DNA of 64,000 nucleotides from assembly GCA_028223895.1 (NCBI GenBank), contig JAOIVE010000004.1, positions 380 to 64,379 on the forward strand, read 5' to 3'. Below, in pieces: positions 1-52,444 of the stretch; positions within the stretch are counted from its first letter, which is position 1, and the number at the start of each line of letters is the position of its first letter. Below the pieces are notes generated by a model that saw only the letters and a list, made by a program, of their open reading frames with translations, had not been told where the DNA came from and ran no database searches. The stretch comes from Rickettsiales bacterium (lineage in GTDB: Bacteria; Pseudomonadota; Alphaproteobacteria; Rickettsiales; UBA6187). A program made the position numbers and the translations under genes.

Positions 1-829
1 CAATGATGAGATGGCAAGCTTTGTTCTGTTTAAGGCCGGAGATGAAACTCCTAAAGTTATTCCTCTTGAATTAATATCAAGACTTGAAGAAATAGATGTA
101 AAAGAAATAGAATATTCAAACGGCTCTGCGGTTATACAATATCGCAATGATCTTATGCGCTTATGTAAAATTGATCCTAATTATGAAATTCCAGAAAATG
201 GCATACAAGAGCTTTTAGTATTTACAGATAACTCCAAAATGATGGGGTTAATGGTAGGCGAGATACAAGATATCGTAAAAGCCAAGATGATTAGTAAATT
301 AAAATCCTCAAATGATGGATTTATCGGCTCTATAGTCATTAATAATCGCACCTGTGATGTTATTGACGCCAGCTATTATTTTAATAAAACATTTAATGAT
401 ATAGAAGAAGAATCAGCATCATCAAAAGCAAGATCAAATTCTACAGCAAATAACAGAGTTTTGCTGGTTGATGATAGCCCATTCTTCCGCAAATTCATAC
501 CGCCTGAGCTAGAAGCCGGAGGCTTTAGAGTTGTAACTGCAAAAGATGCTATTGATGCTCTAAATATCTTAAAAGAAGATAAGAATTTTCTGATTATAGT
601 TACTGATATGAATATGCCAAAAATGAGCGGACAGGAATTTGTTGACGCCTGTAAAGATGATGAGAGCTTGAAACACATACCTTTTGTAGCCCTATCATCT
701 CACTGTAGTGATGATGGAATATTTAATGAAGGTGATTTTCATGGATTTGAGAAGTTCGTTTCAAAAACAAATCATGCAGATCTGACTCAGGCGATCAAAG
801 ATTTAGTTGAAAATAAAGAGGTTGCATAA
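1..829 (+). CDS. cheA: Chemotaxis histidine kinase CheA, C-terminal fragment (CheW-like P5 domain fused to a receiver domain); 5' end lies outside the window
   Basis: Frame is open from nt 2 to the window edge. CheW-like segment (FVLFKAGDETPKVIPLELISRLEEI...) is followed by a REC domain (RVLLVDDSPFFRK...IIVTDMNMPKMSG). It heads the cheW-cheY-cheB-cheR run. Confidence 0.7.
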   Translation, partial: NDEMASFVLFKAGDETPKVIPLELISRLEEIDVKEIEYSNGSAVIQYRNDLMRLCKIDPNYEIPENGIQELLVFTDNSKMMGLMVGEIQDIVKAKMISKLKSSNDGFIGSIVINNRTCDVIDASYYFNKTFNDIEEESASSKARSNSTANNRVLLVDDSPFFRKFIPPELEAGGFRVVTAKDAIDALNILKEDKNFLIIVTDMNMPKMSGQEFVDACKDDESLKHIPFVALSSHCSDDGIFNEGDFHGFEKFVSKTNHADLTQAIKDLVENKEVA

Positions 830-1309
830 ATGACAACACAGGAAGCTTCAGATATAAACTATGATATAGAAAGTAAAAATGCGCACAGATATGTTTCAAT
901 GCGTATAGATAGCCAGCTATTTGGCATGAAGGTAGAAAAAATAGAAGATATTTTAATGCCTCAGGAAATAACCCCTATACCACTGTCTGGAGAGGAAATA
1001 ATTGGGTCATTAAATTTACGTGGAAGAATAGTAACTGCTATAGATCTAAGAGTGGTTTTGGGGATTCCAAAATTAGAAGAGCGAAAAGATTACAGATCAA
1101 TAGTGATTATTTGTAATAATGAGTTATACAGCCTCGTTGTAGATTCTGTTTCTGAAGTATTTAACATACCTTCTTCAGCGATATCCAAAAATCCGGAAAA
1201 TTTATCCGATAAGTGGAAAGAAATCTGCAATGGAGTTTATTCAGTAAAAGACGAACTGATGATAATATTAGATCCAACTAAATTACTAAAAGTAGAAAGT
1301 GATGAATGA
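830..1309 (+). CDS. cheW: Chemotaxis coupling protein CheW
   Basis: 159 aa single CheW-like domain (YVSMRIDSQLFGMKVEKIEDIL...LNLRGRIVTAIDLR). Its start abuts the cheA stop. Confidence 0.85.
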   Translation: MTTQEASDINYDIESKNAHRYVSMRIDSQLFGMKVEKIEDILMPQEITPIPLSGEEIIGSLNLRGRIVTAIDLRVVLGIPKLEERKDYRSIVIICNNELYSLVVDSVSEVFNIPSSAISKNPENLSDKWKEICNGVYSVKDELMIILDPTKLLKVESDE

Positions 1310-1680
1310 TGGAAAATAAAACCTGCTTAGTAGTAGATGATTCTAGCGTTGTGCGAAAAATATGCAGGCCCATTATGGAAAATTTAGGGTTTACTGTAAA
1401 TGAAGCAGCTGATGGAAAAGAGGCACTGGAATCATGCAACAAAATAATGCCTTCTGTTATTTTACTGGATTGGAACATGCCGGTCATGGATGGCCTTGCA
1501 TTCTTAAAAGCATTTTTTGAGGATAAACAAAAAAACGGGGTAAAGGTCATATTTTGCACTACAGAAAACGACATGGCAAAAATCATGGAAGCAATGGCAG
1601 CCGGTGCTGATGAATATATAATGAAACCATTTGACGCTGATATTATAGAAAATAAATTACGTCAAATGGGAATCATTTAA
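1306..1680 (+). CDS. cheY: Chemotaxis response regulator CheY (single receiver domain)
   Basis: 124 aa with LVVDDSSVVRK...LLDWNMPVMDG...KPF. There is a 4-nt overlap with cheW. Confidence 0.9.
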   Translation: MMENKTCLVVDDSSVVRKICRPIMENLGFTVNEAADGKEALESCNKIMPSVILLDWNMPVMDGLAFLKAFFEDKQKNGVKVIFCTTENDMAKIMEAMAAGADEYIMKPFDADIIENKLRQMGII

Positions 1681-1711
1681 TAAATAAAATATCCAATTTC
1701 AAGGGTCTTTT

Positions 1712-2776
1712 GTGAATAACGATGAAGCAAAATACAGAGTAATGATAGTTGAAGATTCTTCGGTTGTAAGGAATTTACTCGGCAAGATAATTAATGAAAC
1801 CAGCGATCTAAATCTAATAGAAACTGCTGAAAATGGCCGGGATGCTATTGATAAAATAACAAATGCAAGACCAGATATATTACTGCTTGATGTAGAAATG
1901 CCGGTTATGGATGGTCTTACTGCTTTACCAGTTCTTTTGAATAAATCTCCTGATACTAAAATAATAATGGTTTCTACTCTAACATCTCATAACGCGCGTA
2001 TTAGCATTACAGCATTAGAAAAAGGAGCATCGGACTATCTGCAAAAGCCATCTTCAAATACAGTTTTAGATGAATTTAAGAAGGAACTTTTACAAAAAAT
2101 ATATGCAATTGCACGAAAGAAACCAATTGATATTTCTTATCAAAGTAAAGTCGAACAAAATGATATAGAAGATAATTTTAAACCAGAAGTATTAGCAATT
2201 GGTAGTTCTACAGGTGGCCCTCAGGCACTGGCAACTTTATTTAGAGGGTTACCGCATAGTTTCAATAATGTTCCTATTTTTCTAACTCAGCATATGCCAC
2301 CTAAATTTACTACATTTTTAGCAAGCAGTATTGAAAACTCTTCTGGCAGAACCTGCATAGAGGCAAAAGACGGCGAACATGTAAAAAACGGCAATATCTA
2401 TATCGCACCCGGCGATTATCATATGCTCATAAAGGGGAAAAAAGATGATCTTATAATTAATCTCACTCAGACAGATCCGGAAAACTTCTGCCGCCCATCA
2501 GTTGATCCAATGCTTCGCAGCCTTGTTGATATATATGGCAGTAATATTTTAACTGTAATACTAACCGGAATGGGGCAAGATGGGCTTCTTGGATCTAAAA
2601 AAGTTGTTGAAAATGGCGGAAGGGTAATAATTCAGGATGAGGCTACAAGCGTTGTCTGGGGTATGCCAGGCGCAATTGCTAAAGCTGGCATTTACCATAA
2701 AATGCTTCCAATAAACCAAATCGCATCAAAGATAGTAGAAATTTTTGCAAAAGGAGGCATCAAGGATGGCTCTTAG
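1712..2776 (+). CDS. cheB: Protein-glutamate methylesterase/glutaminase CheB
   Basis: N-terminal REC domain (MIVEDSSVVRN...LLDVEMPVMDG) plus a CheB methylesterase domain (GSSTGGPQAL, HMPPKFT, GMGQDG). GTG start. Confidence 0.9.
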   Translation: MNNDEAKYRVMIVEDSSVVRNLLGKIINETSDLNLIETAENGRDAIDKITNARPDILLLDVEMPVMDGLTALPVLLNKSPDTKIIMVSTLTSHNARISITALEKGASDYLQKPSSNTVLDEFKKELLQKIYAIARKKPIDISYQSKVEQNDIEDNFKPEVLAIGSSTGGPQALATLFRGLPHSFNNVPIFLTQHMPPKFTTFLASSIENSSGRTCIEAKDGEHVKNGNIYIAPGDYHMLIKGKKDDLIINLTQTDPENFCRPSVDPMLRSLVDIYGSNILTVILTGMGQDGLLGSKKVVENGGRVIIQDEATSVVWGMPGAIAKAGIYHKMLPINQIASKIVEIFAKGGIKDGS

Positions 2777-3578
2777 TCCAAAGGTTTATACTGCAATAGT
2801 TAACATCGTAAAAAATAAATCAGGCATAGCCCTTGGTGATAATAAGGAATATCTCATAGAAAGCCGCCTGATGCCTATAGCAAAAAAATATGAATTGCCA
2901 ACATTAGATGCTCTTGTAAATCTAATGAACTCACAAATGAATGACCAGCTGCTAAATGATATAATAGAGGCAATGACAACAAATGAGTCTTTCTTCTTCA
3001 GAGATATAAAACCATTTGATAATTTAAGAGATCATGCAATACCTTATTTACTAAAAAATAACCCTGGCAAGAAGGATATAAACATATGGAGCGCGGCCTG
3101 CTCTACAGGTCAGGAGCCTTATTCAATAGCAATGACGCTTGAAGAACTACCGCAATTAAAAGATATAAAATATAAAATCACCGCTACAGATCTCGATACA
3201 AAAGTACTAAAAAAAGCCAAAGAGGGAATATATACTCAGTTTGAAGTTCAGCGCGGCATGCCAATTTCTCTATTGATTAAATATTTTACCCAGAAAAAAG
3301 AAAGATGGCTGATAAAAGATATATTAAAAGAACCTATTACATTTGAACCATTTAATCTTATGGATAACCCTGTTTCATTGGGAAATTTTGATATAGTATT
3401 TTGCCGCAACGTCTTGATATATTTTGATAATATAACGAAAGAAAAAGTACTTAAGAACCTCGCCGATAGAATGCCAAAGGGTAGCTTATTATTTTTGGGC
3501 GCTGCCGAAAATTTTGTAGATATCAAAGTTCCTTTTGAGTCTTTTGATAGCATTCCTGGTATTTATAAGCGCATTTAG
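2766..3578 (+). CDS. cheR: Chemotaxis protein methyltransferase CheR
   Basis: SAM-binding motif IWSAACSTGQEPYSIAM. The ATG at 2766 is preceded by AAGGAGG and preferred over the TTG at 2745; it overlaps the cheB stop. Confidence 0.9.
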   Translation: MALSPKVYTAIVNIVKNKSGIALGDNKEYLIESRLMPIAKKYELPTLDALVNLMNSQMNDQLLNDIIEAMTTNESFFFRDIKPFDNLRDHAIPYLLKNNPGKKDINIWSAACSTGQEPYSIAMTLEELPQLKDIKYKITATDLDTKVLKKAKEGIYTQFEVQRGMPISLLIKYFTQKKERWLIKDILKEPITFEPFNLMDNPVSLGNFDIVFCRNVLIYFDNITKEKVLKNLADRMPKGSLLFLGAAENFVDIKVPFESFDSIPGIYKRI

Positions 3579-3699: not shown

Positions 3700-5094
3700 A
3701 TGAGTCAAGTGCGCATTGAAACTGATAGTTTTGGAGAGTTAGAAGTCCCATCTGATAAATATTGGGGCGCGCAAACTCAACGCTCTTTGGGAAATTTTAA
3801 AATTAGCGGTGAGAAAATGGCTCCGCCTCTTGTTCGCGCATTGGGTATTTTAAAAAAATCTGCCGCAATTGTTAATATGGAATATGGCATTCTTGATAAA
3901 AAGATTGGAGATGCTTTAGTTCAGGCTGCTGATGAAGTTATTTCACTAAAATTGCTAGATAATTTTCCATTAGTTGTTTGGCAAACCGGGTCTGGAACTC
4001 AGACAAATATGAATAGTAATGAAGTAATTGCCAATCGCGCGATTGAAATACTTGGCGGAAAAATGGGTAGCAAAGACCCCGTTCACCCTAATGATCACGT
4101 TAATATGGGACAGTCATCAAATGATACATTCCCAACAGCTATGCATATTGCAGCAGCTGAGCAAATAAATCACTCTCTTATTCCATCTCTTGAAAAATTA
4201 GGAGCTGCACTAAAAAGTAAGTCAGAAGAATATAAAGATATAATAAAAATTGGCCGCACACATTTACAAGATGCAACACCTCTTACTTTGGGTCAGGAAT
4301 TTTCAGGATACGCTACTCAAATTGAATATGGCATAGAGCGTGTTAAAGCAACATTACCAAGACTTTACATGCTTGCTCAAGGAGGAACAGCCGTTGGAAC
4401 AGGTCTTAATTCTAAAAAGGGTTTTGATGTAAAATTTGCCTCTGAGGTTACAAAAATAACTGGTCTTCCGTTTATAACAGCACCAAATAAATTTGAAGCT
4501 CTTGCTGCTCATGATGCCATAGTTGAAGCCAGCGGCGCGTTAAATGTTTTAGCTGCAAGTCTTATGAAAATTGCCAACGATATAAGGCTTCTTGGATCTG
4601 GCCCGCGCTGTGGGCTTGGCGAAATAAGCCTGCCTGAGAATGAGCCTGGCTCCTCTATTATGCCCGGTAAAGTTAATCCTACTCAATGTGAAGCGATGAC
4701 TATGCTTTGCGCACAAGTTATGGGTAATAATGTTGCTATAACAGTAGGTGGATCAAATGGTCATTTTGAACTTAATGTATTTAAGCCAATGATGATTCAC
4801 AATCTTTTGCAGTCTATCCGCCTTATAAGCGATGGCTGCCAAAGCTTTACCGATAATTGTGTTTCTGGAATTACAGCAAATAAAGAGCGCATTGAATCAC
4901 TACGCGATGAATCACTTATGCTGGTTACTGCTCTTAATCCGCATATTGGCTATGATAATAGTACAAAAATTGCTAAAAAAGCTCATAAAGATGGAACAAG
5001 GTTGATAGATGCGGCTTTAGAGCTTGGTCTTTTAACTGAAGAGAATTTCTCACAATGGGTGCGTCCTGAAGATATGATTGGCCCTAAAGAGTAA
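3700..5094 (+). CDS. fumC: Class II fumarate hydratase
   Basis: 464 aa with the fumarate lyase signature [16 protein letters not shown] and an N-terminus ([25 protein letters not shown]) typical of FumC. Confidence 0.95.
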
Positions 5095-5185: not shown

Positions 5186-8100
5186 CTATTCAACAGTATT
5201 AAGCTCAATACTCCACTTCTTAGCCAGATATTTCTCTATTTTTCTGCGCTCTCCTGCATCCAAAGCACGATCATAAATTATTACCTCATGTATATCACCG
5301 CTAAAATCCTGCGTATCTGAAGAGCTTGAACCAAGAGATATAACGGTATCTGATATATTTGCTGAAGTATTTACTCCGTCAACCCCTTTTCTGCCATCTA
5401 AATATATTTCATGCACATGGCTTCCTGAAACTCCCTTATATATTCCTGTTACTATATGCCATGAATTAAGAACATAACCGCCTTGAGTATATGCAGCAGT
5501 GCCTTCAATATCAAATTTGAAAATATTTCCCAACAATTCGCCTGAAATATCGCTAACATAGAGCTGAGCCCTGCCATTGGCAACAGAATTATTTCCTACC
5601 ACCATAGCCATAGGAGTCCCGGAGCCACTTGTTGGCTTTGCAACTAAAAAGAAAGTTTTTGCATTTGCTCCTGTAGTCAAACCAGATGTTGAAGTATCCT
5701 TCATCAAACTCGAAGAAAATGTCAGATGATTATCTCCTGAATCATATGTTGGCCCTGTTCCTGTAGGCGTTAAGTCATTTGCATTAATTGACTTATCTTT
5801 TATACATTCAACCGTACCGCCATTTGCAACGGTTGCTCCAGAACAATTAGTTTCAAGAATTGTGCTTGCATCACTAACATCATACCAGGCCGCAAGGCTA
5901 TCAACGATTCCTGCCGGCCCAAGTCCCCATTTATAGGCTAAAGCACGGCTAAGCTTACGCCTTTCATTTGCTGACATCACACGATTATAAATTGCTATTT
6001 CTGCAATATCCACATTGGCAAAATTTGCTCCTGTATGATCGGCTCCAAGGAATATTTCAGATACCATATCTGCAGTTGTAATTGTTTGTGTAGCGCCAAT
6101 CTGCTTTTCATTTACATATGACAAACCATTTGAACCACTTCTTTCAAAAGTTGCTAAATATGCTTGCGTGTTAAATGAAGAAGATGGTCGGTTAAACCAT
6201 GTTGTCGTACTTGAGAATACATATGGGTTACCTGAATTTGCTGTAGATCCGGTACTACTTGCATTCCAATACCAACCATCACCACTTCCGTCATGATGGT
6301 AAAAAACCCTTCCATCAGAATCTGTTAAACTTTTTGAGACCATAAAAAAGCTAAAATCTCCTGAAAGTGTTAATTCCGAAGAAGAAGCCATCGTTTCAGC
6401 AGTGCCATCAAAGGTTATAACAACTCTGCCATTTAATGTATTTCTTCTATCAGGCTGATTTGCATCAGTTGCCTGATAAAGATTTTTTGCAGCTGCAACA
6501 TCATTCCATTGTGTTACGTCAGCATCAGCATCGGCCACATTGGCATCATCAGTAGCTATAGTATTTGGATTACTTGCATCAAGCCAGAATACTAAGCCAG
6601 AAAATTCATTTGCATCAGGATCCGGAAGAGCAATTTTCCATTTATTTGATAGATACTCCTCTACATCTCTCATTTGATATAAATCAAGCGTAGCATTATA
6701 AACTATTATTTCACCAATATTTCCCTGATAATATTTAGTGTCAAAACCATTTCCAATATTACCGTTATTTGCAGTGGTTAAACCTGTAGTATTTCCACCA
6801 TATGCATCATAAAGAACGCCGTCCTTATAAGTCCTTATATAGTGCCCATAACCTGTACCAAACTTTGCCGTTACGATATTAGGAGTTGGAGATGTTGCAT
6901 AAGAAGGAATTGTAGTAATATCAATATCATTACCCCATTGCGCAAGCGATAGCCATGGAGTGCCAAAGTTCCTGTAACCTATATGAAGACTTACATTTGC
7001 ACTGCCACCACCATCATTTCCCAGAAAATATGCTTCATGTTTATCGGCAGTTCTATCTTCTACAACAAAAATTGTATATGCGCTGCTGCCAGCAAGAAAC
7101 GTCAAATCCACATCAAGGTGATCATTTGATCCATCAAAACCTAAAGCAGGAAGCCCGCCCACAACATTTGTCGCATATGTAGGCTGGTTATCTTCGGTGG
7201 CATGAGATGCATCTCTGCCATTTCCAGATTTATCTTTCCACTTACTAACTTTTGAACCATTAAGAATTACTGTCTGACAATCATTTGCATCTACCCATAG
7301 CTGCATATTTGTACGTGATGGCGGGTCAGTATAGTCTGGCGCTTCTCTGGTTTTTACGCAATTTCCAACCGATCTTGCACCAAAATAACATGCGTTGCTT
7401 ACACTTGTAGCACTATGATCTACAATTTCATAGCCATCAGGGCAATGACATGCTCCAACCGGATCAAGATCTGTACGGCGGAACTTCATTCCCGACGGAC
7501 ATGACTGCTCATTATCGTCACCTAATTTTATACCCCATTTTTCTGATAAATATCTTTCAACATTGCGCATGTATTTTTGGCTTAAAGCTTTATTATAAAT
7601 TATAATTTCACCAATATTTCCCTGATAATATTTAGTGTCAAAGCCGTTAGCCACATTACCATTATTTGCTGAAATTAAAGCTGTTGTATTAGTATTTGAT
7701 GCTTCATACACAACTCCATCTTTGTGTGTTCTTATATAATGCCCAACACTTGTATCTAACTTTGCAGTTACGATGTTAGGAGTTGGAGATGCCGTGTAAG
7801 ATGGTATATTATCTATATCAAGATCATTACCCCACTGACCAAGCGACAACCAGGGAGTACCAAAATTTCTATATCCTATGTGAAGACTTAAATTTGAACC
7901 GCCGCCGCCATCATTTCCTATAAAATATGCTTCGTGCTTATCAGCAGTTCGGTCCTCTACAGCAAATATAGTATATGCAGAACCTGCAAGAAATGATAAA
8001 TCAACATCCATATGATCATTCGATCCGTCAAAACCTAATACTGGCAGGCCATTAATAACATTTGTTCCATATAGAGGCTGAAAACTTGCGCTTGATTGAG

Positions 8101-9193
8101 TGGCGTTTCTAGCATTGCCACTTTTATCTTTCCAGCAACCAACAGCATTAGTATTTGCCGGAATTGAGATAGTTGTACAATCATCATTGGTATATAAAGT
8201 ATTAATATCCGCTGAATCCAGCCACACCTGCAAACCAGAAATACTAGATGGATTATTAGATTGTACCGGCTGGCTATCGCAATATTTCAATAGATTTGTA
8301 GCAGCGCTATATATCGCATCAGCCTGAGAGCTATCACCATCATCGGTTGCAGCATATGAATCAAGTGAACTACGTTTAGCATCGTAAACGCTGCGTGCAT
8401 TGCGGCATGTCACAGCATCAAATTTATAATCAGCTACATTATTTTTAGGAATAATGATTTTGGTTTTAGTTGCATAAACAACAATATCGTCAAAATTATT
8501 AGTCTTTTTATTTTTTACATAGGTTTTAACAGTATGGTCAAGATTTTGCTTCTCAAAACCTACCGCAGACGCAGCCCCCGGAGGAGTTGTAGTGTCATTT
8601 CTTCTCCACGCAACATTATAACCATTATTTCCATGGCTAATAATAACATAAACTGCCCCTTGATTATCAGGAATTGTAGCGTCAATTTCTGTTAAATTAG
8701 TACCTGCAATATCTGATATTCTTATATCGCCATTATTATTTGTATCGTTAAAGTCGGTGCTATTTCCCATCCAATCTGCTACGCGATATGTAAATTTACG
8801 CTCCCAGCCATCATAGGCATATTCATCGGACAGGCCTAATGTACGCACAGGAACCATACCGGTTTCATTACTTATTGTTCCGGCATCACATTTATGATCT
8901 GTAGTTCCATCATAGGCAGTTGCCACCCCAAAATTGGTATTAGTTTCAAGATAAGAAGGCACAGCAGGGCAAGGAATATAATTTTTGGTGCGAATAAAAG
9001 CTTCCAGAGCTCTTTGTATCACCTCCAGATTATTTTCTGTTTGGCGAACTGCAACGGCCTCATTGCGTTTTTGTAATACGGAAAGTCCTCCAACTGCCAA
9101 CATTGCTATAATGCTGGTAGAAATTGATAGCTCAGCAAGTGAATATCCACCGTTTGCCTTAATCAAATTTTTTAGTCGCTTTAACCAGTTCAT
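5186..9193 (-). CDS. Giant modular type IV pilin/pseudopilin-like protein: prepilin N-terminal cleavage/methylation signal, pilin-like core and four LamG/concanavalin-A-like lectin modules
   Basis: N-terminus MNWLKRLKNLIKANGG/YSLAELSISTSIIAMLAVGG has a Gly cleavage site, Glu at +5 and a hydrophobic helix. Four modules each begin W(L/V/Y)D... and end GDI/GNIGE(I/V)IIY(N/D)..L....R..E.YL..KW. Approximate module positions are 7530-8234, 6640-7306, 5925-6600 and 5189-5900. Confidence 0.75.
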   Translation of the reverse strand: MNWLKRLKNLIKANGGYSLAELSISTSIIAMLAVGGLSVLQKRNEAVAVRQTENNLEVIQRALEAFIRTKNYIPCPAVPSYLETNTNFGVATAYDGTTDHKCDAGTISNETGMVPVRTLGLSDEYAYDGWERKFTYRVADWMGNSTDFNDTNNNGDIRISDIAGTNLTEIDATIPDNQGAVYVIISHGNNGYNVAWRRNDTTTPPGAASAVGFEKQNLDHTVKTYVKNKKTNNFDDIVVYATKTKIIIPKNNVADYKFDAVTCRNARSVYDAKRSSLDSYAATDDGDSSQADAIYSAATNLLKYCDSQPVQSNNPSSISGLQVWLDSADINTLYTNDDCTTISIPANTNAVGCWKDKSGNARNATQSSASFQPLYGTNVINGLPVLGFDGSNDHMDVDLSFLAGSAYTIFAVEDRTADKHEAYFIGNDGGGGSNLSLHIGYRNFGTPWLSLGQWGNDLDIDNIPSYTASPTPNIVTAKLDTSVGHYIRTHKDGVVYEASNTNTTALISANNGNVANGFDTKYYQGNIGEIIIYNKALSQKYMRNVERYLSEKWGIKLGDDNEQSCPSGMKFRRTDLDPVGACHCPDGYEIVDHSATSVSNACYFGARSVGNCVKTREAPDYTDPPSRTNMQLWVDANDCQTVILNGSKVSKWKDKSGNGRDASHATEDNQPTYATNVVGGLPALGFDGSNDHLDVDLTFLAGSSAYTIFVVEDRTADKHEAYFLGNDGGGSANVSLHIGYRNFGTPWLSLAQWGNDIDITTIPSYATSPTPNIVTAKFGTGYGHYIRTYKDGVLYDAYGGNTTGLTTANNGNIGNGFDTKYYQGNIGEIIVYNATLDLYQMRDVEEYLSNKWKIALPDPDANEFSGLVFWLDASNPNTIATDDANVADADADVTQWNDVAAAKNLYQATDANQPDRRNTLNGRVVITFDGTAETMASSSELTLSGDFSFFMVSKSLTDSDGRVFYHHDGSGDGWYWNASSTGSTANSGNPYVFSSTTTWFNRPSSSFNTQAYLATFERSGSNGLSYVNEKQIGATQTITTADMVSEIFLGADHTGANFANVDIAEIAIYNRVMSANERRKLSRALAYKWGLGPAGIVDSLAAWYDVSDASTILETNCSGATVANGGTVECIKDKSINANDLTPTGTGPTYDSGDNHLTFSSSLMKDTSTSGLTTGANAKTFFLVAKPTSGSGTPMAMVVGNNSVANGRAQLYVSDISGELLGNIFKFDIEGTAAYTQGGYVLNSWHIVTGIYKGVSGSHVHEIYLDGRKGVDGVNTSANISDTVISLGSSSSDTQDFSGDIHEVIIYDRALDAGERRKIEKYLAKKWSIELNTVE
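6640..8234 (-). repeat. Intragenic tandem duplication of a LamG module plus linker (period 897-927 nt) inside the giant pilin-like gene
   Basis: An identical 35-nt run occurs at 6711-6745 and 7608-7642. Long shared peptide runs include GFDGSNDH, VEDRTADKHEAYF, LHIGYRNFGTPWLSL, TPNIVTAK and GFDTKYYQGNIGEII. Confidence 0.85.
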
Positions 9194-9202
9194 TTTTTTA
9201 CC

Positions 9203-11116
9203 TTATGGGAGAGTAACTCCCCATTTCTTTGACAAATAATCTTCTATATTAGTTCTTTCAACAGATGATAATGCCCTATCGTAAATTATCAGCTCTGCAA
9301 GATCACCATTATAATAATCAGTGCCAGAACGACTAAATCCTCTTCCAATGCTTCCATTGCTCCCAAACAGCATAGGATTTTTATCCGCATTACTATTGCT
9401 TGCAACAACCCCCGCTCTGACTGACCTTATTGAATGACCTGAACTCATATCAAATAAGGCTGTAATAATTCTAGCCTGATTTGTAGTATTTGATATGGCA
9501 GCATCAATATCATTGTTCCACTGCGCTAACGTAAAACCAGTATCAGTACGATAACCTATATGAAGAGCATTATTATCACTTCCATTATTAATGGTGCCCA
9601 TAACCATCATAGTGCCTGTAGTATTTCTTTTTTCTACAAAGATTATGGTATAATTATTATCAACGATAAAAGTCAGGTCAATATCCATAAAATCATTACT
9701 GCCATCAAAGCGCACAACTTCCCTATCTGTATTTATAATATTGGTTTTATATAATGGCATGCGGTCACTATCATTTTGAATAGCATGGTTATTACGACCG
9801 CTTTTATCCTTCCAGCAGGCAACTGAATTGCCATCAGCCGTTACTAATTTATCCGCAGCACATGTCGGATCTGTGTATAATGTGCTTGTATCATTACCAT
9901 CAAGCCAAAGTCTTAAGCCATATGTAGGAAGACCAACTGACGACCAGTCAACCGCACATGATCCATCCCAGTTATTTGCCGCACAGCTACATGAGCCTGT
10001 AGGGGCATGATAAGTACTTGAATTATCAGCACTAACTCCGGGGCAGCGCGGACCATTCCAGCCAGAAGTAACTCCCGTTACTAATCCATAATATTTTACA
10101 CATACTTTTTGCATTGCCAGCATAAGACTAAGAGCAACCGCATCACCCTTATTTTCAATATAATCTCCACTACCTAATTGCTGCGAAGTTATTTGCGCAC
10201 GCATATCTACAAATTCTGCCGCTGTGAAATTACGCAACATTTGAGAGTTAGCATTACATTCTGCTGCTGTTAATAAATAAGAGCCTTTTGTAGATGTTAC
10301 TGATTCAATTTGTTGCTTAGTTCTAAAATAAATAATATCATCATATGCAGAGCTGTAATCAGCCTTATAGTATGTAGTGTCTGCATCGCCATTTTCCTGC
10401 TCATTAGCTCCACCATCATTAGCAAGCTGAGCACCGCTTGCAAGATATGCACCCTTGCCGTTTGAACCGTGGCTGACAACTACATATGCCGCACCTTTAG
10501 TAATTGTACCAGATGGGTTATTAACTGTTATATTTCCTGCATTATTTGCATAATCAAGCTCAGTACATCCTTCAAGCTCGCTCATTGCCTGAGTGTAATT
10601 TCCTGTTACGTTTAAATCTGTTCCACACAAAGTATCGCTCACATGATATGTAAATCGCCTTCCCCACCCATCATACATATAGCTTGCATCAAGACCTAAA
10701 GACTTTGCCGGCACTGAACCTAGAGAATTTGGACAGTCAACGCCATAAGTTGTAAGAGAGTTTATTGTTGAGCTACTGGTATCTAAATCTTCGGTACCAT
10801 AGTCATTATCATAAAAATTTGTACTCGAAGCCATTGTATTATCTTCACGCAAGAGCTTGTTAGCAGGACAAGGAAGTCTGTTTCTTTGCACTCTAAAGGC
10901 TTCAATTGCAGAGGCAATTTCAGAAATTTTTCTTTGTGTTTCAATCGAATTAACCGCATCACTAGTGGTATTAGGCCGCGTCCATGCCAAATAGCCAACC
11001 GCAATAGTTGCAGCAACGCTTATAACGACCGATAACTCAATAAGGCTAAAACCTCCTTGCTGAGAACTTACATTTAAGCGTTTGAATAGATTTCTTAAGT
11101 ACTTAAAAGGCCTCAT
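9203..11116 (-). CDS. Modular type IV pilin/pseudopilin-like protein with Cys-rich middle region and one C-terminal LamG-like module (paralog of the downstream giant gene)
   Basis: MRPFKYLRNLFKRLNVSSQQGG/FSLIELSVVISVAATIAVGYLAW is a prepilin signal. The core shared with its neighbour includes LPCPA..., VPAKSLGL...YDGWGRRFTYHV and VVVSHGSNG. C-terminal module: LWLDGND...CWKDKSG...FDGSNDFMDIDL...GDLAELIIYDRALS...YLSKKWG. Start chosen at the Met 14 codons inside the ORF (11116); 11158 is also possible. Confidence 0.7.
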   Translation of the reverse strand: MRPFKYLRNLFKRLNVSSQQGGFSLIELSVVISVAATIAVGYLAWTRPNTTSDAVNSIETQRKISEIASAIEAFRVQRNRLPCPANKLLREDNTMASSTNFYDNDYGTEDLDTSSSTINSLTTYGVDCPNSLGSVPAKSLGLDASYMYDGWGRRFTYHVSDTLCGTDLNVTGNYTQAMSELEGCTELDYANNAGNITVNNPSGTITKGAAYVVVSHGSNGKGAYLASGAQLANDGGANEQENGDADTTYYKADYSSAYDDIIYFRTKQQIESVTSTKGSYLLTAAECNANSQMLRNFTAAEFVDMRAQITSQQLGSGDYIENKGDAVALSLMLAMQKVCVKYYGLVTGVTSGWNGPRCPGVSADNSSTYHAPTGSCSCAANNWDGSCAVDWSSVGLPTYGLRLWLDGNDTSTLYTDPTCAADKLVTADGNSVACWKDKSGRNNHAIQNDSDRMPLYKTNIINTDREVVRFDGSNDFMDIDLTFIVDNNYTIIFVEKRNTTGTMMVMGTINNGSDNNALHIGYRTDTGFTLAQWNNDIDAAISNTTNQARIITALFDMSSGHSIRSVRAGVVASNSNADKNPMLFGSNGSIGRGFSRSGTDYYNGDLAELIIYDRALSSVERTNIEDYLSKKWGVTLP

Positions 11117-11296
11117 AACCCCTATATCCTTATAAGAATAGGTTAAAATAACGGCCAATCCATTGTATCATAAAACTCTTGCAGCATCACTAATTTTTAT
11201 ACAAAAAGACCCAAATGATTGAAATAATCTCAAGCAAAAGAAACTATATATGAATTAACAAACTTTCATTTACTATATTACTTTATTTTTCAGCAA

Positions 11297-13198
11297 CTAA
11301 AACCTTAAAGTAACAGTACCATATACAGACCTGCCTGCGCGTGATTCCATTGCATTAACGATAGCTGCATTTTGCGGCTGGGAAGTGCTTATATCCTCAT
11401 TTAGCAAGTTAAAACCATATATGGAAATATCCATATTTTTTGGCATTGATGAAACAAATTTATATGGCTCAATAATAATGCTAGTTGTAAGCAAATGATA
11501 GCTTTCAGGCTTTGGGTTGCGCGCAGCATTTTCTGTATAGGTTGCCCCCTCACCAACATATCTGTCAAAAACGTCCCACTTAATGCCATCTATGCCAGTA
11601 TAAGTGAATCCGGCCTTAGCAACCCAGTTTGGCGATGCAATAACATCCTTAGTACCAGAAATGTCCTCATTGGCCTGATACGTGTATGAACCTTGCAAAT
11701 GCCAATCCTTATATAATTTTGCCTTACCTTCAAAAGTGAAGCCTTTTGAATCAATATCCGATCCATTAACATAACGAGTACTAATAATGCTTATCTTATT
11801 ACTGTAAGTGCTTTTAAACAGTGTAAGAGCCCAGCTATAAGCTTGATCCTTATAGGATAATTGCGCATCGTATGTTTTGACAGTTTCAGGCCGCAGCCCC
11901 TCATCTCCTACAGCGACACCCGGAATGTTAATAAATTGCTCAGCCGGATAAGGAGAGCGAAATGCTTCACTATAGAGCAATTTTGCACTCCAGTTTGTAT
12001 TAAATGTTAAGATAGAACCTGCACGCGGTGAAAAATCTCTTTTGCCCCCTTCAGTTTTGTTAACCTGAACCCCGGCAATAAGTTTTAGCCAATCTAATGG
12101 TCTATAATCAAGCTGTGTATAACCACCAAATCTTTTTGAACTATAATTAGTTGAAAGCAGTAAATTCTCACCTTTTAATAATTTATAGGTACCACCCACC
12201 AGCAGACTGATTTTATCTGTTATTTTTCCATCTAAAAGCAATTCAGCGTCAGAGCTGTCCACATCATAATTGGCTACGCCGCTATATAACGCTTTTATAT
12301 TTGTAAATGACCCATTGAAAGTAGCCTTCCAATTATCGGAAATATTATGGCTATATCCAAGATCTACAAAGTTCTGCCGCTGCCACCCTTTTTTAAATGG
12401 ATATGCATAAGGCAATGAGAACATATCCTGATTTAAATAGCTGCTCATAGCATTTAGGGTAAGATCTTTATAGTTGGCTCGCACCACATAACTTGTATCG
12501 GTTGAGCGCCTGTTATCAGAACTATTGACGGAAGAAAAGTCTAAACCATGAATTTTATAACCTTCGGTCTTTCCTAATAAAGCCGCCGAATAAATATTAT
12601 AATCTTCACCAGCTGAACCAAAACTTAATTCTGTTCCTCGACTATTATAAGTCCCATAACTTGCAGAAACCTGCCCTTCAGCCTTTGAAGAGGCCTGCTT
12701 GGTAATTATATTCACAACTGCACTAACAGCATTTGTACCGTAAAGCACAGAACCCGGGCCGCGAATAAGCTCAATATTTTCAATAGCGCTCAGAGGAAAA
12801 TTCCTTAAGATGTTCATATCATTCCCACCGGTGAAAGGATCACGCACCGGACGACCATTTATGAGCAATAATGTGTGATAGTTGCCAGTTGCAGATTTAT
12901 CTCCTCTAAGTGCAACAGCATGTTCACCGGTAAATGCATTTTTACTGCCAAATACACCTGGCATACGCTCCAGCAACTCAAATACACTCCTTGCACCTGA
13001 AGTTATTATTTCATCATTAGTCAAAACATTAACTATACCAGGTGCCTCAGATATTTTTTCATCGCGCTTGGAGGCAACTGAAACGGTTAGCTCTTCTAAA
13101 TCAAGGCTAAAAAGCTCATCAATCTCTTCATTACCGGCATGTGCAGACTGCGCCATAAACGCCATAATACATAAAAAAACACCCAATTTAATATTCAC
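11297..13198 (-). CDS. TonB-dependent outer-membrane receptor (substrate unknown)
   Basis: Signal peptide ...AQSAHA/GNEE, TonB-box-like ELTVSVAS, a plug domain (PGIVNVLTNDEI...RMPGV), beta-barrel repeats and a C-terminal aromatic residue (TVTLRF). Confidence 0.85.
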   Translation of the reverse strand: MNIKLGVFLCIMAFMAQSAHAGNEEIDELFSLDLEELTVSVASKRDEKISEAPGIVNVLTNDEIITSGARSVFELLERMPGVFGSKNAFTGEHAVALRGDKSATGNYHTLLLINGRPVRDPFTGGNDMNILRNFPLSAIENIELIRGPGSVLYGTNAVSAVVNIITKQASSKAEGQVSASYGTYNSRGTELSFGSAGEDYNIYSAALLGKTEGYKIHGLDFSSVNSSDNRRSTDTSYVVRANYKDLTLNAMSSYLNQDMFSLPYAYPFKKGWQRQNFVDLGYSHNISDNWKATFNGSFTNIKALYSGVANYDVDSSDAELLLDGKITDKISLLVGGTYKLLKGENLLLSTNYSSKRFGGYTQLDYRPLDWLKLIAGVQVNKTEGGKRDFSPRAGSILTFNTNWSAKLLYSEAFRSPYPAEQFINIPGVAVGDEGLRPETVKTYDAQLSYKDQAYSWALTLFKSTYSNKISIISTRYVNGSDIDSKGFTFEGKAKLYKDWHLQGSYTYQANEDISGTKDVIASPNWVAKAGFTYTGIDGIKWDVFDRYVGEGATYTENAARNPKPESYHLLTTSIIIEPYKFVSSMPKNMDISIYGFNLLNEDISTSQPQNAAIVNAMESRAGRSVYGTVTLRF

Positions 13199-51156: not shown

Positions 51157-51669
51157 ATGAGCAGTACAAAAGAAGATATAGATTCTATTTCGGAGTTTAG
51201 GATTTTATTTAAAGAAGAAGGGCAAAATAGTTTAATAAACCTGGCTCAGTCTGATAACATTAATGATAGATTTATTGTTATAGAAGCTCTTTGGGTTATG
51301 AGCAATAGATTTAGAGGCGGCAGTAAAGTTCGTTTTCTAGAATTATTTAAAGCACTTGAGGAAAGAAACCTTATAGACTCATTAGAAGAAGATCTTCCTG
51401 AACAGCATAAATTTAAGCTAGTTGATATCCGTAAGAGATATGATATATTCAAAGAGGAGCAAGGCACATTAGCTTGTTTATATAATCCAGAGACAATTTC
51501 TCTTAGTGACCTTATTGAAAATACCGCAACTTGTGAAGCTATTAATAAGAGAATCTGTGCTAATACAGAAGATGTAATTCAATTAGGTGCAAATAGTGCT
51601 CAATCCTTCATTCATCATCCTGAAATTATAGATATTCTTAAATTAATAAAGCACACGAGCTTGCTTTGA
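51157..51669 (+). CDS. Hypothetical protein (170 aa); possibly the N-terminal part of a split ankyrin protein
   Basis: No recognised motif. Its stop codon overlaps the TTG start of the next ORF (TTGA). Confidence 0.45.
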   Translation: MSSTKEDIDSISEFRILFKEEGQNSLINLAQSDNINDRFIVIEALWVMSNRFRGGSKVRFLELFKALEERNLIDSLEEDLPEQHKFKLVDIRKRYDIFKEEQGTLACLYNPETISLSDLIENTATCEAINKRICANTEDVIQLGANSAQSFIHHPEIIDILKLIKHTSLL

Positions 51670-52151
51670 GCGATGAGCTTCTAAAGAGCCTTATCGCTTA
51701 TTCTGCGATGTTTAATTATGGTGAAGTTTGTAAATATTTACTTAGTGATTTTGTTACGCAAGAGAACAAAGACTATCTATTGTCTTCAACAAATATAATA
51801 AATCAAGGAAAAGGAGTAAATACAACAGCCCTAATAGCTGCTTGCAATAATGGAAATACAGAAATAGCCAAAGCATTAATAAAAGCAGGGGCCGATGTTA
51901 ATCTAGCTGATAATTACGGCAATATCGCCTTAATTATTGCTTGCCAGAATGGCTATACAGAAACAGTCAAAGCATTAATAGAAGCAAAGGCTGATGTTAA
52001 TCTAACTGATAGTGATGGCGATACCGCCTTAATGGTTGCAACTAGTAAAGATGTAGTAGATAAAACTAATAATCCTAAACCAATTACATCAAGCAATGAA
52101 AACTGGCAGAATTATATCAGTGGAAGAACATCCTGTTGCCGTAAACTATAA
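51666..52151 (+). CDS. Ankyrin-repeat protein with Cys-rich C-terminus
   Basis: Canonical ankyrin repeats (NTTALIAACNNGNTEIAKALIKAGADVN, YGNIALIIACQNGYTETVKALIEAKADVN, DGDTALMVA). The protein ends ...SGRTSCCRKL. Confidence 0.75.
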   Translation: MSDELLKSLIAYSAMFNYGEVCKYLLSDFVTQENKDYLLSSTNIINQGKGVNTTALIAACNNGNTEIAKALIKAGADVNLADNYGNIALIIACQNGYTETVKALIEAKADVNLTDSDGDTALMVATSKDVVDKTNNPKPITSSNENWQNYISGRTSCCRKL

Positions 52152-52245
52152 CCTATAGTAATACGCCTAATTATTGCAGCCCTCATTCGCCTATAATCGC
52201 ACTTCGCCAAGCTATGTACGACTTACGGCTTTGTAGGCATCCTAC

Positions 52246-52260
52246 GGCGTAGGATGGTGC
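52246..52260. repeat. Distal copy of the 15-nt direct repeat GGCGTAGGATGGTGC (second copy abuts tRNA-Leu)
   Basis: Exact match to 53842-53856. Looser flanking similarity (AGCTAT...CGA...TTACGG/GTAAGG). It is embedded in the hairpin CATCCTAC-GGC-GTAGGATG (52238-52256). Confidence 0.6.
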
Positions 52261-52363
52261 TATCTAGGCAACGTTATCAGAACCTGTAAGGAGTTTAGAC
52301 TTTTATAATTCAGATGCCAGATCTACTTTTCAAATCTATACAGACAAAAATTAATGAGTATAC

Positions 52364-52444
52364 ATAGATTCAATTAAGTTTAATATTGAACCTATCATAT
52401 CATTACTATAATATAGGTTCAATTAAGTTTAATATTGAACCTAT
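52364..52444 (+). promoter_or_regulatory. Duplicated 32-nt operator-like palindrome with embedded promoter-like hexamers upstream of the Fic gene
   Basis: ATAG(A/G)TTCAAT-TAAGTTTAAT-ATTGAACCTAT occurs at 52364-52395 and 52413-52444, with one mismatch between copies. The second copy has perfect 11-nt arms. TTGAAC at 52386-91 and TATAAT at 52407-12 are spaced by 15 nt. Confidence 0.55.

Follow-up and report, generated by a model that had tools for sequence, protein, structure and literature searches.

Two large genes, here called A and B, lie in tandem in a 64,000-nucleotide stretch of DNA (the window) from an uncultured deep-branching Rickettsiales-like bacterium, and both combine a class III prepilin signal with LamG modules. 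The locus raises the question whether such proteins are subunits of a type IV filament, and of which kind, or envelope proteins that use the signal as a membrane anchor.

The A-B locus and its LamG modules

Genes A and B are co-directional, with A upstream of B and 9 nt between the A stop and the B start (Table 1). The A ORF opens with a TTG at 11158 and has an ATG at 11116, the latter giving the 637 aa annotated at NCBI. A is an exact match to MDB2414400.1 (‘prepilin-type N-terminal cleavage/methylation domain-containing protein’), and B is MDB2414399.1 (‘LamG domain-containing protein’). The ORF listing agreed with the preliminary description of this DNA on the sizes and common strand of the two ORFs, the strand being minus, and on their position between fumC and a TonB-dependent receptor gene. 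The cores of A and B, which comprise about 250 aa, are 32% identical over an alignment of about 290 aa (BLASTP, E 5e-30), and a paralogous origin of the tandem pair is supported at the sequence level. The motifs that had been read as common to both proteins, LPCPA/IPCPA, VP..LGL....YDGW.R.FTY.V and VV(V/I)SHG.NG, do align in A and B and are invariant or nearly so in 42 family members.

Table 1 Features of the A-B locus and of the candidate peptidase gene in the window.
Feature	Position	Strand	Description
fumC	3700-5094	+	Identified by reading the ORF translation, without a family-library scan
Gene B	5186-9193	-	1335 aa, carrier and 4 LamG modules; Laminin_G_3 in 4 stretches, head HMM E 3.4e-23
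B LamG block	5189-8242	-	Four modules, L1-L4
B L4	5189-5905	-	Residues 1097-1335
B L3	5915-6607	-	Residues 863-1093
B L2	6620-7321	-	Residues 625-858
B L1	7520-8242	-	Residues 318-558
B leader, alpha1 and head	8408-9193	-	Residues 1-262; 16-aa leader ending ...NGG, then YSLAELSISTSIIAMLAVGG, alpha1 helix, head domain
Gene A	9203-11116	-	637 aa, carrier and 1 LamG module; TIGR02532 20.6 bits (cutoff 16.3), Laminin_G_3 28.5 bits
A LamG module	9206-9925	-	Residues 398-637; PF13385, AF2 beta-sandwich
A tail subdomain	9932-10318	-	Residues 267-395; helical, Cys-rich C.C..G.WD..C end
A head domain	10319-10882	-	Residues 79-266; invariant columns, pLDDT mostly above 85, head-only HMM
A leader and alpha1 helix	10883-11116	-	22-aa basic leader ending in Gly, FSLIE..., helix residues 23-78, then RLPCPA turn
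TonB-dependent receptor	11297-13198	-	Pfam scan
A24 prepilin-peptidase-like gene	61031-61846	-	271 aa; A24_N_bact E 5e-17

The LamG/concanavalin-A-like modules, one in A and four in B, were confirmed with the Pfam model Laminin_G_3, which matched A once and B in four stretches (E 1.4e-13, 51.7 bits, cutoff 27.6), and for A also with AF2 and Foldseek, the matches of the latter including Streptococcus sanguinis PilC (7oa7, E 7e-8), lectin domains of trans-sialidases and the tailspike of a cyanophage (9vyh, E 1.5e-9). In B a Cys-rich linker (residues 559-624) separates L1 and L2, and the identity between these two modules is 69% at the protein and 73% at the DNA level, compared with 27-33% for every other LamG module pair. 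The B orthologues end after L3, so L4 was added in this lineage. The tail subdomain is confined to A-type proteins (a tail-only HMM matched A-type orthologues alone); its cysteines C287, C339 and C358 do not vary, and C376 and C387 hardly do. The many invariant cysteines in head and tail are consistent with disulfide bonds outside the cytoplasm, and the proteins are likely to be exported.

The class III signal, the alpha1 helix and the head domain

The N-termini read ...SSQQG/FSLIELSVVISVAATIAVGYLAW in A and ...KANGG/YSLAELSISTSIIAMLAVGGLSV in B, the slash marking the end of the leader. In a six-frame scan of the 64 kb the prepilin motif stood in an N-terminal context in A and B alone; the other two pattern matches were a TatA-like N-terminus and an internal segment of GatB. 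Residues F23, S24, L25, E27 and L28 of A (F+1, S+2, L+3, E+5, L+6) are invariant in 42 sequences, G-1 is conserved to at least 90% in 42 homologues, and in the turn after the helix P82-C83-P84-A85 is invariant, with L81 close to it. An HMM of the head, from which the N-terminus had been left out, matched 89 distinct ORFs in the fetched loci, and 81 of these have the class III motif G/A(-1), F/Y(+1), E(+5) at a median of 58 residues upstream. Position -1 is G in 77 of them and A in 4, and position +1 is F in 65 and Y in 15. The B orthologues at loci L001, L003 and L005 share G/Y(S/T)L.EL(S/A)ISTSI(I/L)A(M/L)LAVG, and a few paralogues elsewhere lack Glu5, a point against filament subunits. It is clear that the class III signal, originally read from the letters of A and B, is real and conserved.

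The N_methyl HMM search that had been suggested as a check gave a divided answer: A scored above the TIGR02532 cutoff and under the Pfam N_methyl cutoff, and B had no N_methyl HMM match. All ten shorter relatives tested were over the Pfam cutoff. The scores of A and B could be taken to mean a chance resemblance or mis-annotation of ordinary Sec-type or cytoplasmic LamG proteins, which we regard as exceedingly improbable, since the motif does not vary among dozens of orthologues that are 35-45% identical, occurs with the independently defined head in the 81 ORFs mentioned above, and is part of a leader and alpha1 segment that aligns with real GspG sequences over 63 columns (hhalign 96%, E 3e-9). 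A fortuitous N-terminal motif is effectively refuted by these three observations. The alpha1 of A is predicted by AF2 as a helix of about 54 residues (25-78), and the PDB profile matches were pilins (geopilin, PilA, MshA, PilE1), all restricted to the N-terminal segment. The leaders of 16-22 aa are longer than typical type IVa or T2SS leaders, which counts against the filament-subunit reading.

The head is a separate matter. Its invariant columns in A include G133/P136/L140, D149-W151-Y157, the pair C164/C184 and S215-G217-G220-G222, and the head HMM match in B spans residues 73-242. There is no Pfam model for this domain, PF08334 (T2SSG) matched neither A nor B, and TIGR01710 gave 12.5 bits against a cutoff of 88.85, and thus no GspG-head HMM match. 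A Foldseek search of the core model against solved structures returned nothing significant, pilins appearing solely at E > 3, and in sequence as in fold the head has no significant match among solved pilins. DGWG..Y and SHG.NG do align with DPWG and S.G.DG of GspG in the same order, and with E values of 0.0094 and 0.19 and probabilities <5% these collinear resemblances are not significant. The pilin/GspG-type core proposed in the preliminary description is accordingly weakly supported, standing for the leader and alpha1 and not for the head, and the structure prediction proposed as a test for a pilin fold recovered the LamG jelly roll and left the head unmatched.

Family, filament machinery and possible role of the pair

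A and B are not a one-off. Their core family, which is large and unnamed yet already annotated, counts about 1,100 clusters at E<=1e-30, mostly from Rickettsiales-like MAGs and often as tandem arrays of 2-4 paralogues per locus. The cargo on the core varies between none, one or two LamG, NHL/SGL, RCC1, WD40, FG-GAP and a PF14870 BNR-type domain; several relatives are named ‘pseudopilin PulG’ by JGI, and one has a weak TadF match. An A-type gene directly followed by a B-type gene was found in at least nine other MAG species (L001, L003/L018, L005, L014, L015, L016, L017, L019, L020), with flanking genes that differ from locus to locus. Seven other MAG species have B orthologues with three LamG modules and a length of ~1,100-1,180 aa, and the largest relative found has ~1,460 aa (L026), so that placing B far outside the usual architecture was an overstatement.

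Pilus machinery had been said to be missing near the pair. Within the 64 kb this holds: when nearly all ORFs of >=120 aa were scanned with Pfam, none showed a T2SSE, T2SSF, secretin or PilMNOP domain, and no ATPase, platform protein or secretin was found in the window or within 10 kb of the examined A-B pairs. The picture was incomplete, since members in relatives adjoin type IV filament genes and type IV pilus genes are reported for the family of UBA6187. In MAGs of Betaproteobacteria an operon for a secretin, a TPR protein, an MshE-type ATPase and T2SSF ends with a member of 245-254 aa; at L034 a complete Tad locus begins 1.3 kb away from three members in tandem; and at L023, on a contig from the same MAG as the A-B pair locus L017, a secretin and an A24 peptidase are divergently oriented to two members. 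UBA6187 has an A-B pair (L018) and an orthologue of the window A24 gene (L064). For its family, the Athabascaceae, genes for type IV pili, flagella and chemotaxis are reported (PMC9352585), and components of type IV pili and of type II secretion are discussed jointly, as widespread among basal Rickettsiales, in PMC10847448. Because these links span different filament types (MSHA-like, Tad), they single out no one partner system.

As anticipated, the A24 gene at 61 kb is supported as the only candidate processing enzyme within the window, although a divergent one: Peptidase_A24 gave 16.5 bits, under the cutoff of 26.5, and Glu occupies the first catalytic Asp position (IEAEHKKIP), with DAE/DAT in 10 of 10 close orthologues.

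Taken together, we lean slightly towards A and B being a conserved pair of modular subunits of a type IV filament, of the minor-pilin or pseudopilin type; a pilus machine with its genes elsewhere would most likely display them as adhesins. Both proteins would use the class III signal to insert into the inner membrane, where an A24 prepilin peptidase would cut after the leader Gly and perhaps N-methylate the new N-terminus. A type IV pilus or type II-like machine elsewhere in the genome would then extract the protein by its hydrophobic Glu5-bearing alpha1, and we assume that a 140-kDa subunit can pass through the secretin. The bulky C-terminal cargo suggests a location at or near the filament tip, where an A-B heterodimer, with its 1+4 LamG lectin-type modules, might act as a multivalent adhesin that binds glycans on host, prey or particle surfaces.

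The same proteins may instead be membrane-anchored in the envelope and never polymerised, with the signal as a cleaved or uncleaved inner-membrane anchor. The LamG modules, held in the periplasm or at the cell surface, would then serve to sense or capture glycans or to organise the envelope, and the proteins would resemble the many orphan N_methyl proteins of some phyla. We hold this to be unlikely but a serious candidate: in none of about ten loci does the A-B cassette adjoin filament machinery, no pilin fold matches the head significantly, the first catalytic residue of the window A24 protein is non-canonical, the A24-like gene at L023 apparently misses both Asp residues, and 2-4 paralogues per locus exceed typical minor-pilin sets. 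However, the strong family-wide purifying selection on Glu5 and on the Gly-Phe/Tyr junction is hard to explain for a simple anchor, alpha1 is homologous to the polymerisation helix of GspG, and some members lie within or beside filament operons.

If A and B do enter a filament, it could also be a type II secretion-like or Tad-like piston, with the two proteins as tip pseudopilins (cf. GspK or TadE/F) whose LamG modules would have secreted substrates or envelope polysaccharide, and not external targets, as their ligands. GspG as best profile match, the JGI name, the Tad locus at L034, the TadF match and the components widespread in basal Rickettsiales (PMC10847448) all point this way, but the GspG-head model failed to match, the signal is of the F/Y+1, E+5 type and not of the Flp/TadE type, the betaproteobacterial link is to an MSHA-like pilus operon, and a periplasmic piston is poorly suited to five adhesin-type modules. 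Such a role instead of one in a surface type IVa pilus seems to us distinctly improbable.

Comparison with known modular pilins and tip adhesins

The combination of prepilin and LamG has been published as one architecture of modular pilins (IPR012902 + PF13385; Raynaud et al. 2021, PMC8179133), and A and B follow the same domain logic as the InterPro-defined proteins of that survey, which covers more than 1,200 proteins in 264 architectures with PF13385 among the 15 most frequent extra domains. The survey extreme is 860 aa, compared with 1335 aa for B, and neither the head family nor the A-B pairing appears in it. B has no detectable IPR012902/PF07963 match, so a survey of this type would miss it.

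PilC of S. sanguinis, whose structure 7oa7 was matched by the A model, likewise has a class III signal, a pilin helix and a C-terminal LamG-type lectin module (PMC8179133, PMC9934059). As outlined in PMC9934059, PilC and another minor pilin, PilA, were characterised together as a complex that binds glycans, which parallels the conserved A-B pairing. The pilin module of PilC is small and canonical, while the carrier in A and B has about 250-390 aa with an unmatched head, to which A adds the helical Cys-rich subdomain; PilC has one lectin module and the present proteins up to four; and the A-B genes lie outside any pilus operon in a diderm alphaproteobacterium. With GspG/PulG (PF08334, TIGR01710) the pair shares a homologous leader, alpha1 and following turn (RLPCPA vs RYPT), and the motifs D.WG..(F/Y).Y and S.G.(D/N)G are collinear between them. 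In contrast to GspG, A and B have a head of about double the length, into which segments with Cys are inserted, as well as C-terminal cargo and no gsp operon context, and they do not reach the GspG family models.

LamG-like domains are probably also present in MshQ. The tips of type IVa and MSHA pili present large adhesins that are not pilins, PilY1/PilC and MshQ, of about 1,000-1,200 aa, a likeness in size to B, and MshQ (about 1,200 residues) comes after the minor pilin genes mshDOP in the MSHA locus (PMC13533445); distant members of the present family sit in MSHA-like operons as well. No PilY1 domain was found. According to PMC13533445, a C-terminal beta-strand docks PilY1 and MshQ onto a complex of minor pilins, whereas A and B have a prepilin signal of their own.

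The A-B gene pair and its prepilin signals

The genes for A and B, two prepilin-type proteins with one and four LamG modules respectively, are co-directional and only 9 nt separate the stop of A from the start of B; the two are therefore almost certainly co-transcribed. A scan for promoters and terminators between positions 4900 and 11500 gave counts at the level of shuffled sequence. The GC content of the A-B region (0.38-0.39) equals that of the rest of the window, so nothing suggests recent acquisition by horizontal transfer. The TonB-dependent receptor and fumC genes on either side were dropped as functional partners, because the flanking genes differ in every relative examined. Elsewhere in the window we found chemotaxis genes, an ankyrin-repeat gene whose product has Legionella Dot/Icm Ank effectors as its best matches, and a Fic-domain gene. 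Ankyrin-repeat and Fic-domain genes are typical of host-interacting bacteria; with the chemotaxis genes in addition, the gene content suggests that the organism is motile and interacts with eukaryotes.

Coordinates of features in the window and in fetched loci of relatives (L numbers)
Feature	Locus	Position	Strand	Details
Chemotaxis genes	window	1-3578		cheW, cheY, cheB; cheR by reading of the translation
fumC	window	3700-5094	+	read from translation; converges on B
Gene B	window	9193 down to 5186	-	1335 aa; NCBI MDB2414399.1
LamG modules L1/L2 of B	window	6620-8242	-	
Gene A	window	TTG 11158 or ATG 11116 to stop 9203-9205	-	637 aa from the ATG, as used in NCBI MDB2414400.1
TonB-dependent receptor	window	11297-13198	-	upstream of A
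Ankyrin-repeat and Fic-domain genes	window	51666-53801	+	about 230 nt apart
Lys/Glu-rich protein	window	59606-61027	+	473 aa; adjoins the A24 gene
A24 peptidase-like gene	window	61031-61846	-	271 aa; A24_N_bact E 5e-17; peptidase domain 16.5 bits, under cutoff
DUF2610 (PF11020) gene	L001	9574-9852		also in L016, L017, L022
DUF2610 (PF11020) gene	L005	9681-10001		
Paralogue without Glu5	L030	4695-8445		
Paralogue without Glu5	L027	4392-5192		
Paralogue without Glu5	L020	11057-12586		
Four head-domain genes	L026	8071-19337		Rickettsiales MAG JBGTBD010000002.1; 632, 635, 265 and 1464 aa
Two members with NHL-repeat cargo	L013	10001-13721		Rubrivivax sp. MAG JAHCKS010000002.1
Complete Tad locus and three tandem members	L034	31-13861		Alphaproteobacteria MAG JBNKRZ010000011.1; CpaC, CpaD, CpaE, CpaF, TadB, TadC
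A24-like gene	L023	359-2628		Rickettsiaceae MAG JAJONM010000112.1

A class III signal consists of a short basic leader ending in Gly, a hydrophobic residue at +1 (usually Phe), Glu at +5 and about 20 hydrophobic residues. This motif is visible in A, where the leader MRPFKYLRNLFKRLNVSSQQG precedes the mature start FSLIELSVVISVAATIAVGYLAW, as well as in B, with leader MNWLKRLKNLIKANGG and mature start YSLAELSISTSIIAMLAVGGLSV. In a six-frame scan of the window A and B were the only proteins carrying it at the N-terminus; two other pattern matches were a TatA-like start and an internal GatB segment. The prepilin signals claimed in the preliminary description were only partly recognized by the profile models: A scored 20.6 bits with TIGR02532, above the cutoff of 16.3, but stayed below the Pfam N_methyl threshold (17.5 vs 21.2 bits), and B matched neither model. 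All ten shorter relatives tested passed the Pfam N_methyl cutoff, with 21.5-33.6 bits. Across 42 homologues (32-48% identity) the residues F+1, S+2, L+3, E+5 and L+6 never vary, conservation of G-1 is at least 90%, and the three B orthologues with N-termini read have the start G-Y(S/T)L.EL(S/A)ISTSI... in common. A head-only HMM, built from A residues 79-266 with the N-terminus left out, was searched against all ORFs of the fetched loci and matched 89 distinct ORFs; the class III motif was present in 81 of these, a median of 58 residues upstream, with G (77) or A (4) at position -1 and mostly F (65) or Y (15) at +1. We take the signal to be real, its conservation outweighing the HMM scores as an argument, and a chance origin is effectively excluded. 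Several paralogues carry Ser, Val or Asp in place of Glu5 (GYSLIS..., GFALIV..., GYTMID...). Glu5 is the residue usually needed for pilin assembly, and the substitutions suggest that some family members have lost it.

The carrier and its LamG cargo

A and B are alike over about 290 N-terminal residues (32% identity, E 5e-30). The motifs of the shared core that had been listed earlier are all found in this alignment and are invariant in the whole family: LPCPA; G133/P136/L140; D149-W151-Y157; C164 and C184; S215-G217-G220-G222. The AlphaFold2 model of A, made from a 42-sequence alignment, had a mean pLDDT of 81. It has a helix over residues 25-78, then a beta-rich head whose strands are predicted with high pLDDT (mostly above 85); further on come a helical subdomain (267-343) and a beta-sandwich (400-637). 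In a pilin fold, a long N-terminal alpha1 helix is packed on an antiparallel beta-sheet head. Since the Foldseek matches of the full model were dominated by LamG, a model of the core only (pLDDT 74) was made. It gave no significant match among solved structures, and four pilin or pseudopilin structures (1ay2, 3s0t, 3g20 and 5vxx) appeared among its matches at E 3-10.

The GspG-likeness ascribed to the core in the preliminary description was compared with a GspG profile built from six annotated gspG genes of a plasmid collection. With hhalign the carrier profile matched it at 96% (E 3e-9) over columns 10-76 only, comprising the leader, alpha1 and the following turn (RLPCPA vs RYPT), and in a PDB profile search pilins matched the N-terminal segment only. 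On these profile comparisons we assign alpha1 to the pilin/GspG type. When the head alone was aligned to the GspG profile, the two best local alignments were the motifs noted earlier, in GspG order: DgWgrrftYHV vs DpWg.py (E 0.0094) and aAyVlvShG.NG vs ..di.S.g.Dg (E 0.19), each with a probability below 5%. PF08334 (T2SSG) had no match at E<=1 in A or B, and TIGR01710 (GspG) reached 12.5 bits against a cutoff of 88.85, with the N-terminal helix alone. The likeness thus stands for the helix and for the collinearity of the motifs, but it does not extend to a GspG family match, and the head may be a much-inserted GspG-like head, a relationship that we do not regard as established. Between head and LamG module A has an additional helical tail (residues 267-395) with a Cys-rich motif at its end, and an HMM of this tail matched A orthologues only among the fetched loci. 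The Cys-rich linker before the L2 module of B resembles the end of the A tail.

With Pfam Laminin_G_3 (PF13385, cutoff 27.6) B scored 51.7 bits in four stretches and A 28.5 bits in one, in agreement with the module counts first read from the sequence. Foldseek of the A model returned 252 PDB matches at E<=1e-3, and those listed are lectin-type jelly-rolls (concanavalin-A-like): the cyanophage tailspike 9vyh, trans-sialidase lectin domains, clostridial neurotoxin HCN domains, the arabinan-binding domain 5hon and Streptococcus sanguinis PilC (7oa7, E 7e-8). The tailspike is the best structural match of the module, and a viral connection of this LamG subtype is possible. The nearest LamG relatives outside the pilin-type proteins (P0044, P0047, P0076, P0087 and P0095 from the homology search) are about 1,000 aa long, have no signal and start straight away with a LamG module.

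The number of modules varies between relatives. B orthologues recovered from the fetched loci have exactly three LamG modules in seven other MAG species (L001/2, L003/18, L005, L015, L016, L017); since these orthologues end after three modules and align collinearly with residues 3-1091 of B, its fourth module (1097-1335) is an addition in this lineage. A orthologues carry no, one or two modules (about 380, 640 and 900 aa), and one A-type carrier (P0030) has PF14870 (PSII_BNR) instead of LamG. Within B, the modules L1 and L2 share 69% protein and 73% DNA identity while the remaining pairs share 27-33%, pointing to a recent within-gene duplication or gene conversion.

An unnamed family and its conserved gene pair

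For a census of the family, the core profile was searched exhaustively with HMMER against 1.84 billion cluster representatives, giving 10,411 matches at E<=1e-3, 7,020 at E<=1e-10 and 1,102 at E<=1e-30. Many of these are stand-alone proteins of 235-330 aa covering profile positions 10-260; longer members carry NHL/SGL, RCC1, WD40 or FG-GAP/VCBS cargo. A scan of GTDB species representatives with an 8-sequence alignment found 48 loci, mostly in MAGs labelled Rickettsiales, Rickettsiaceae or Alphaproteobacteria, and also in Micavibrio and Midichloriaceae; the betaproteobacterial matches were distant and mostly confined to the N-terminus. The locus thus points to a large unnamed family of about 1,100 clusters at E<=1e-30, which has its own head, interchangeable cargo and a conserved two-gene layout, and is concentrated in uncultured lineages at the base of the Rickettsiales. 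Members like B, which escape signature-based surveys, would also be recovered with a profile of the head domain.

Tandem arrays of two to four members are common (e.g. L024, L026-L030, L032-L034 and L038-L041), and the L026 array includes a member of about 1,460 aa that exceeds B in size. An A-type gene directly followed by a B-type gene occurs in the window and in at least nine other species, with flanks that vary by locus. Directly upstream of the A-type gene, six relatives have a small and highly conserved DUF2610 gene with 70-85% identity; it is absent from the window, L003, L015, L019 and L020, and we regard it as a syntenic neighbour only and not as a third gene of the cassette. In L013 the two members lie in a region with genes for TrwC and MobA relaxases, TraG, an integrase, a toxin-antitoxin system and an H-NS-like protein; the family can apparently travel on integrative or conjugative elements.

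Filament machinery, proposed role and known systems

We consider it on balance probable that A and B, a conserved pair, act as modular minor pilins or pseudopilins. What the analysis shows of this directly is the signal, the alpha1 helix, the family, the folds and the pairing. The class III signal would direct insertion and processing of both proteins, and a type IV filament machine with its genes elsewhere in the genome would incorporate them; being bulky, they would be placed at or near the filament tip, where A and B would interact and the 1+4 lectin-type modules would be displayed as a multivalent, presumably glycan-binding adhesin.

The preliminary description had reported no pilus machinery in the 64 kb, and Pfam scans covering almost every ORF of 120 aa or more bore this out: no ATPase, platform protein, secretin or alignment-complex domain was found, and the A24 gene at 61 kb is the only related gene. 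Searches with T2SS proteins and the machinery of L034 and L042 likewise found none within 10 kb of any A-B pair. The A24 protein is indeed divergent, since Glu replaces the first catalytic Asp (IEAEHKKIP); ten of ten orthologues (51-61% identity) have Asp at this position, (V/I)DAEHKKIP, and GPGFDYVKL is common to them. The Glu may be a genuine conservative substitution, may mean that activity has been lost, or may stem from an error in the assembly, and an additional prepilin peptidase elsewhere in the genome is possible. In this clade, 16 residues are inserted ahead of the second Asp motif (GPGFDYVKL). Neither Pfam nor NCBIfam matched the 473-aa protein next to the A24 gene, and none of the fetched loci contains a sequence similar to it. 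We rejected it as a secretin because it does not resemble those of L023, L042 or pO103, and the orthologous region of UBA6187 has a different 544-aa gene at its position.

The missing linkage between machinery and A-B, the head without a match and the odd A24 peptidase are what would be expected if A and B were non-polymerised envelope proteins that use the signal as an anchor. We regard this main rival as somewhat unlikely, and set beside it three loci (L042/L043, L034 and L023) that tie the family to filament systems. In L042 and L043, both from Betaproteobacteria MAGs, a member of 245-254 aa (head HMM E 8.6e-8 and 7.6e-10) closes an operon whose other products are a secretin, a TPR protein, an MshE-type ATPase, T2SSF and four unknown proteins. 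In L034 three tandem members (442, 826 and 456 aa) start 1.3 kb past a complete Tad locus, an arrangement that raises the question whether some members work on Tad-type machines. In L023 a secretin gene and an A24-like gene are divergent from two tandem members, and the contig belongs to the same Rickettsiaceae MAG as L017, which carries an A-B pair. The A24-like gene lies between the secretin gene and the tandem members and seems to have neither canonical Asp (Thr at the first position, 'IEVKF' at the second); judged by these residues it may be a pseudo-peptidase keeping only the N-terminal Zn-finger domain. A variant of the minor pilin reading, in which A and B belong to the pseudopilus of a T2SS-like or Tad-like system, appears quite improbable to us.

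The MAG UBA6187 provides one more link, through published work. Its contig DITJ01000004.1 (L018) carries an A-B pair, and it has an orthologue of the window A24 gene (L064); RuvX and GatCAB lie near this orthologue as they lie near the A24 gene in the window, but gene orientation differs. UBA6187 is named an Athabascaceae MAG by Schön et al. (PMC9352585), who report that type IV pili, flagella and chemotaxis are encoded by members of Mitibacteraceae and Athabascaceae. Published reconstructions have proposed a type IV pilus for early attachment to eukaryotic hosts in Rickettsiales, and A and B are plausible candidates for its adhesive end. It is tempting, but in our view rather unlikely, to go further and see in the ~190-aa head, for which there is no Pfam model and no significant solved-structure match, a new pilin-type carrier that serves deep-branching Rickettsiales and relatives as a general display platform, swapping LamG, NHL, RCC1, WD40 and BNR-type modules, with A-B as the heterodimeric tip adhesin of an ancestral Rickettsiales type IV pilus. 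If true, the pair would give the origin of host association in Rickettsiales a concrete molecular candidate.

Modular pilins, which combine an N-terminal pilin signal or module with a C-terminal domain that is not pilus-specific, were defined by Raynaud et al. (PMC8179133), who found more than 1,200 of them with 264 architectures; PF13385 is among the 15 commonest added domains, and an 860-aa protein is cited as the extreme. They are the current explanation for new binding functions of simple type IV filaments, but only a few have been studied; the papers cited here name cases from two cultured bacteria, Streptococcus sanguinis and enterotoxigenic E. coli. PilC of S. sanguinis is the studied lectin-bearing example and was characterised with PilA as a glycan-binding complex of minor pilins (PMC9934059). 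A and B combine a class III signal with Laminin_G_3, the A model matches the PilC lectin module (7oa7), and the locus follows the same logic as PilC-type modular pilins. It extends known biology and does not overturn it, because the architecture is published and the NCBI annotation of A and B is already correct in outline. PilY1 and MshQ are large non-pilin tip adhesins (PMC13533445); the PilY1/PilC type of tip adhesin has a C-terminal PilY1 beta-propeller and no prepilin signal, whereas A and B have their own class III signal and no PilY1-type Pfam match. From the known modular pilins A and B differ in their carrier family, which is unnamed and unusually large, in the number of modules and in size, in their conservation as a pair, in the missing operon linkage, and in their concentration in basal Rickettsiales.
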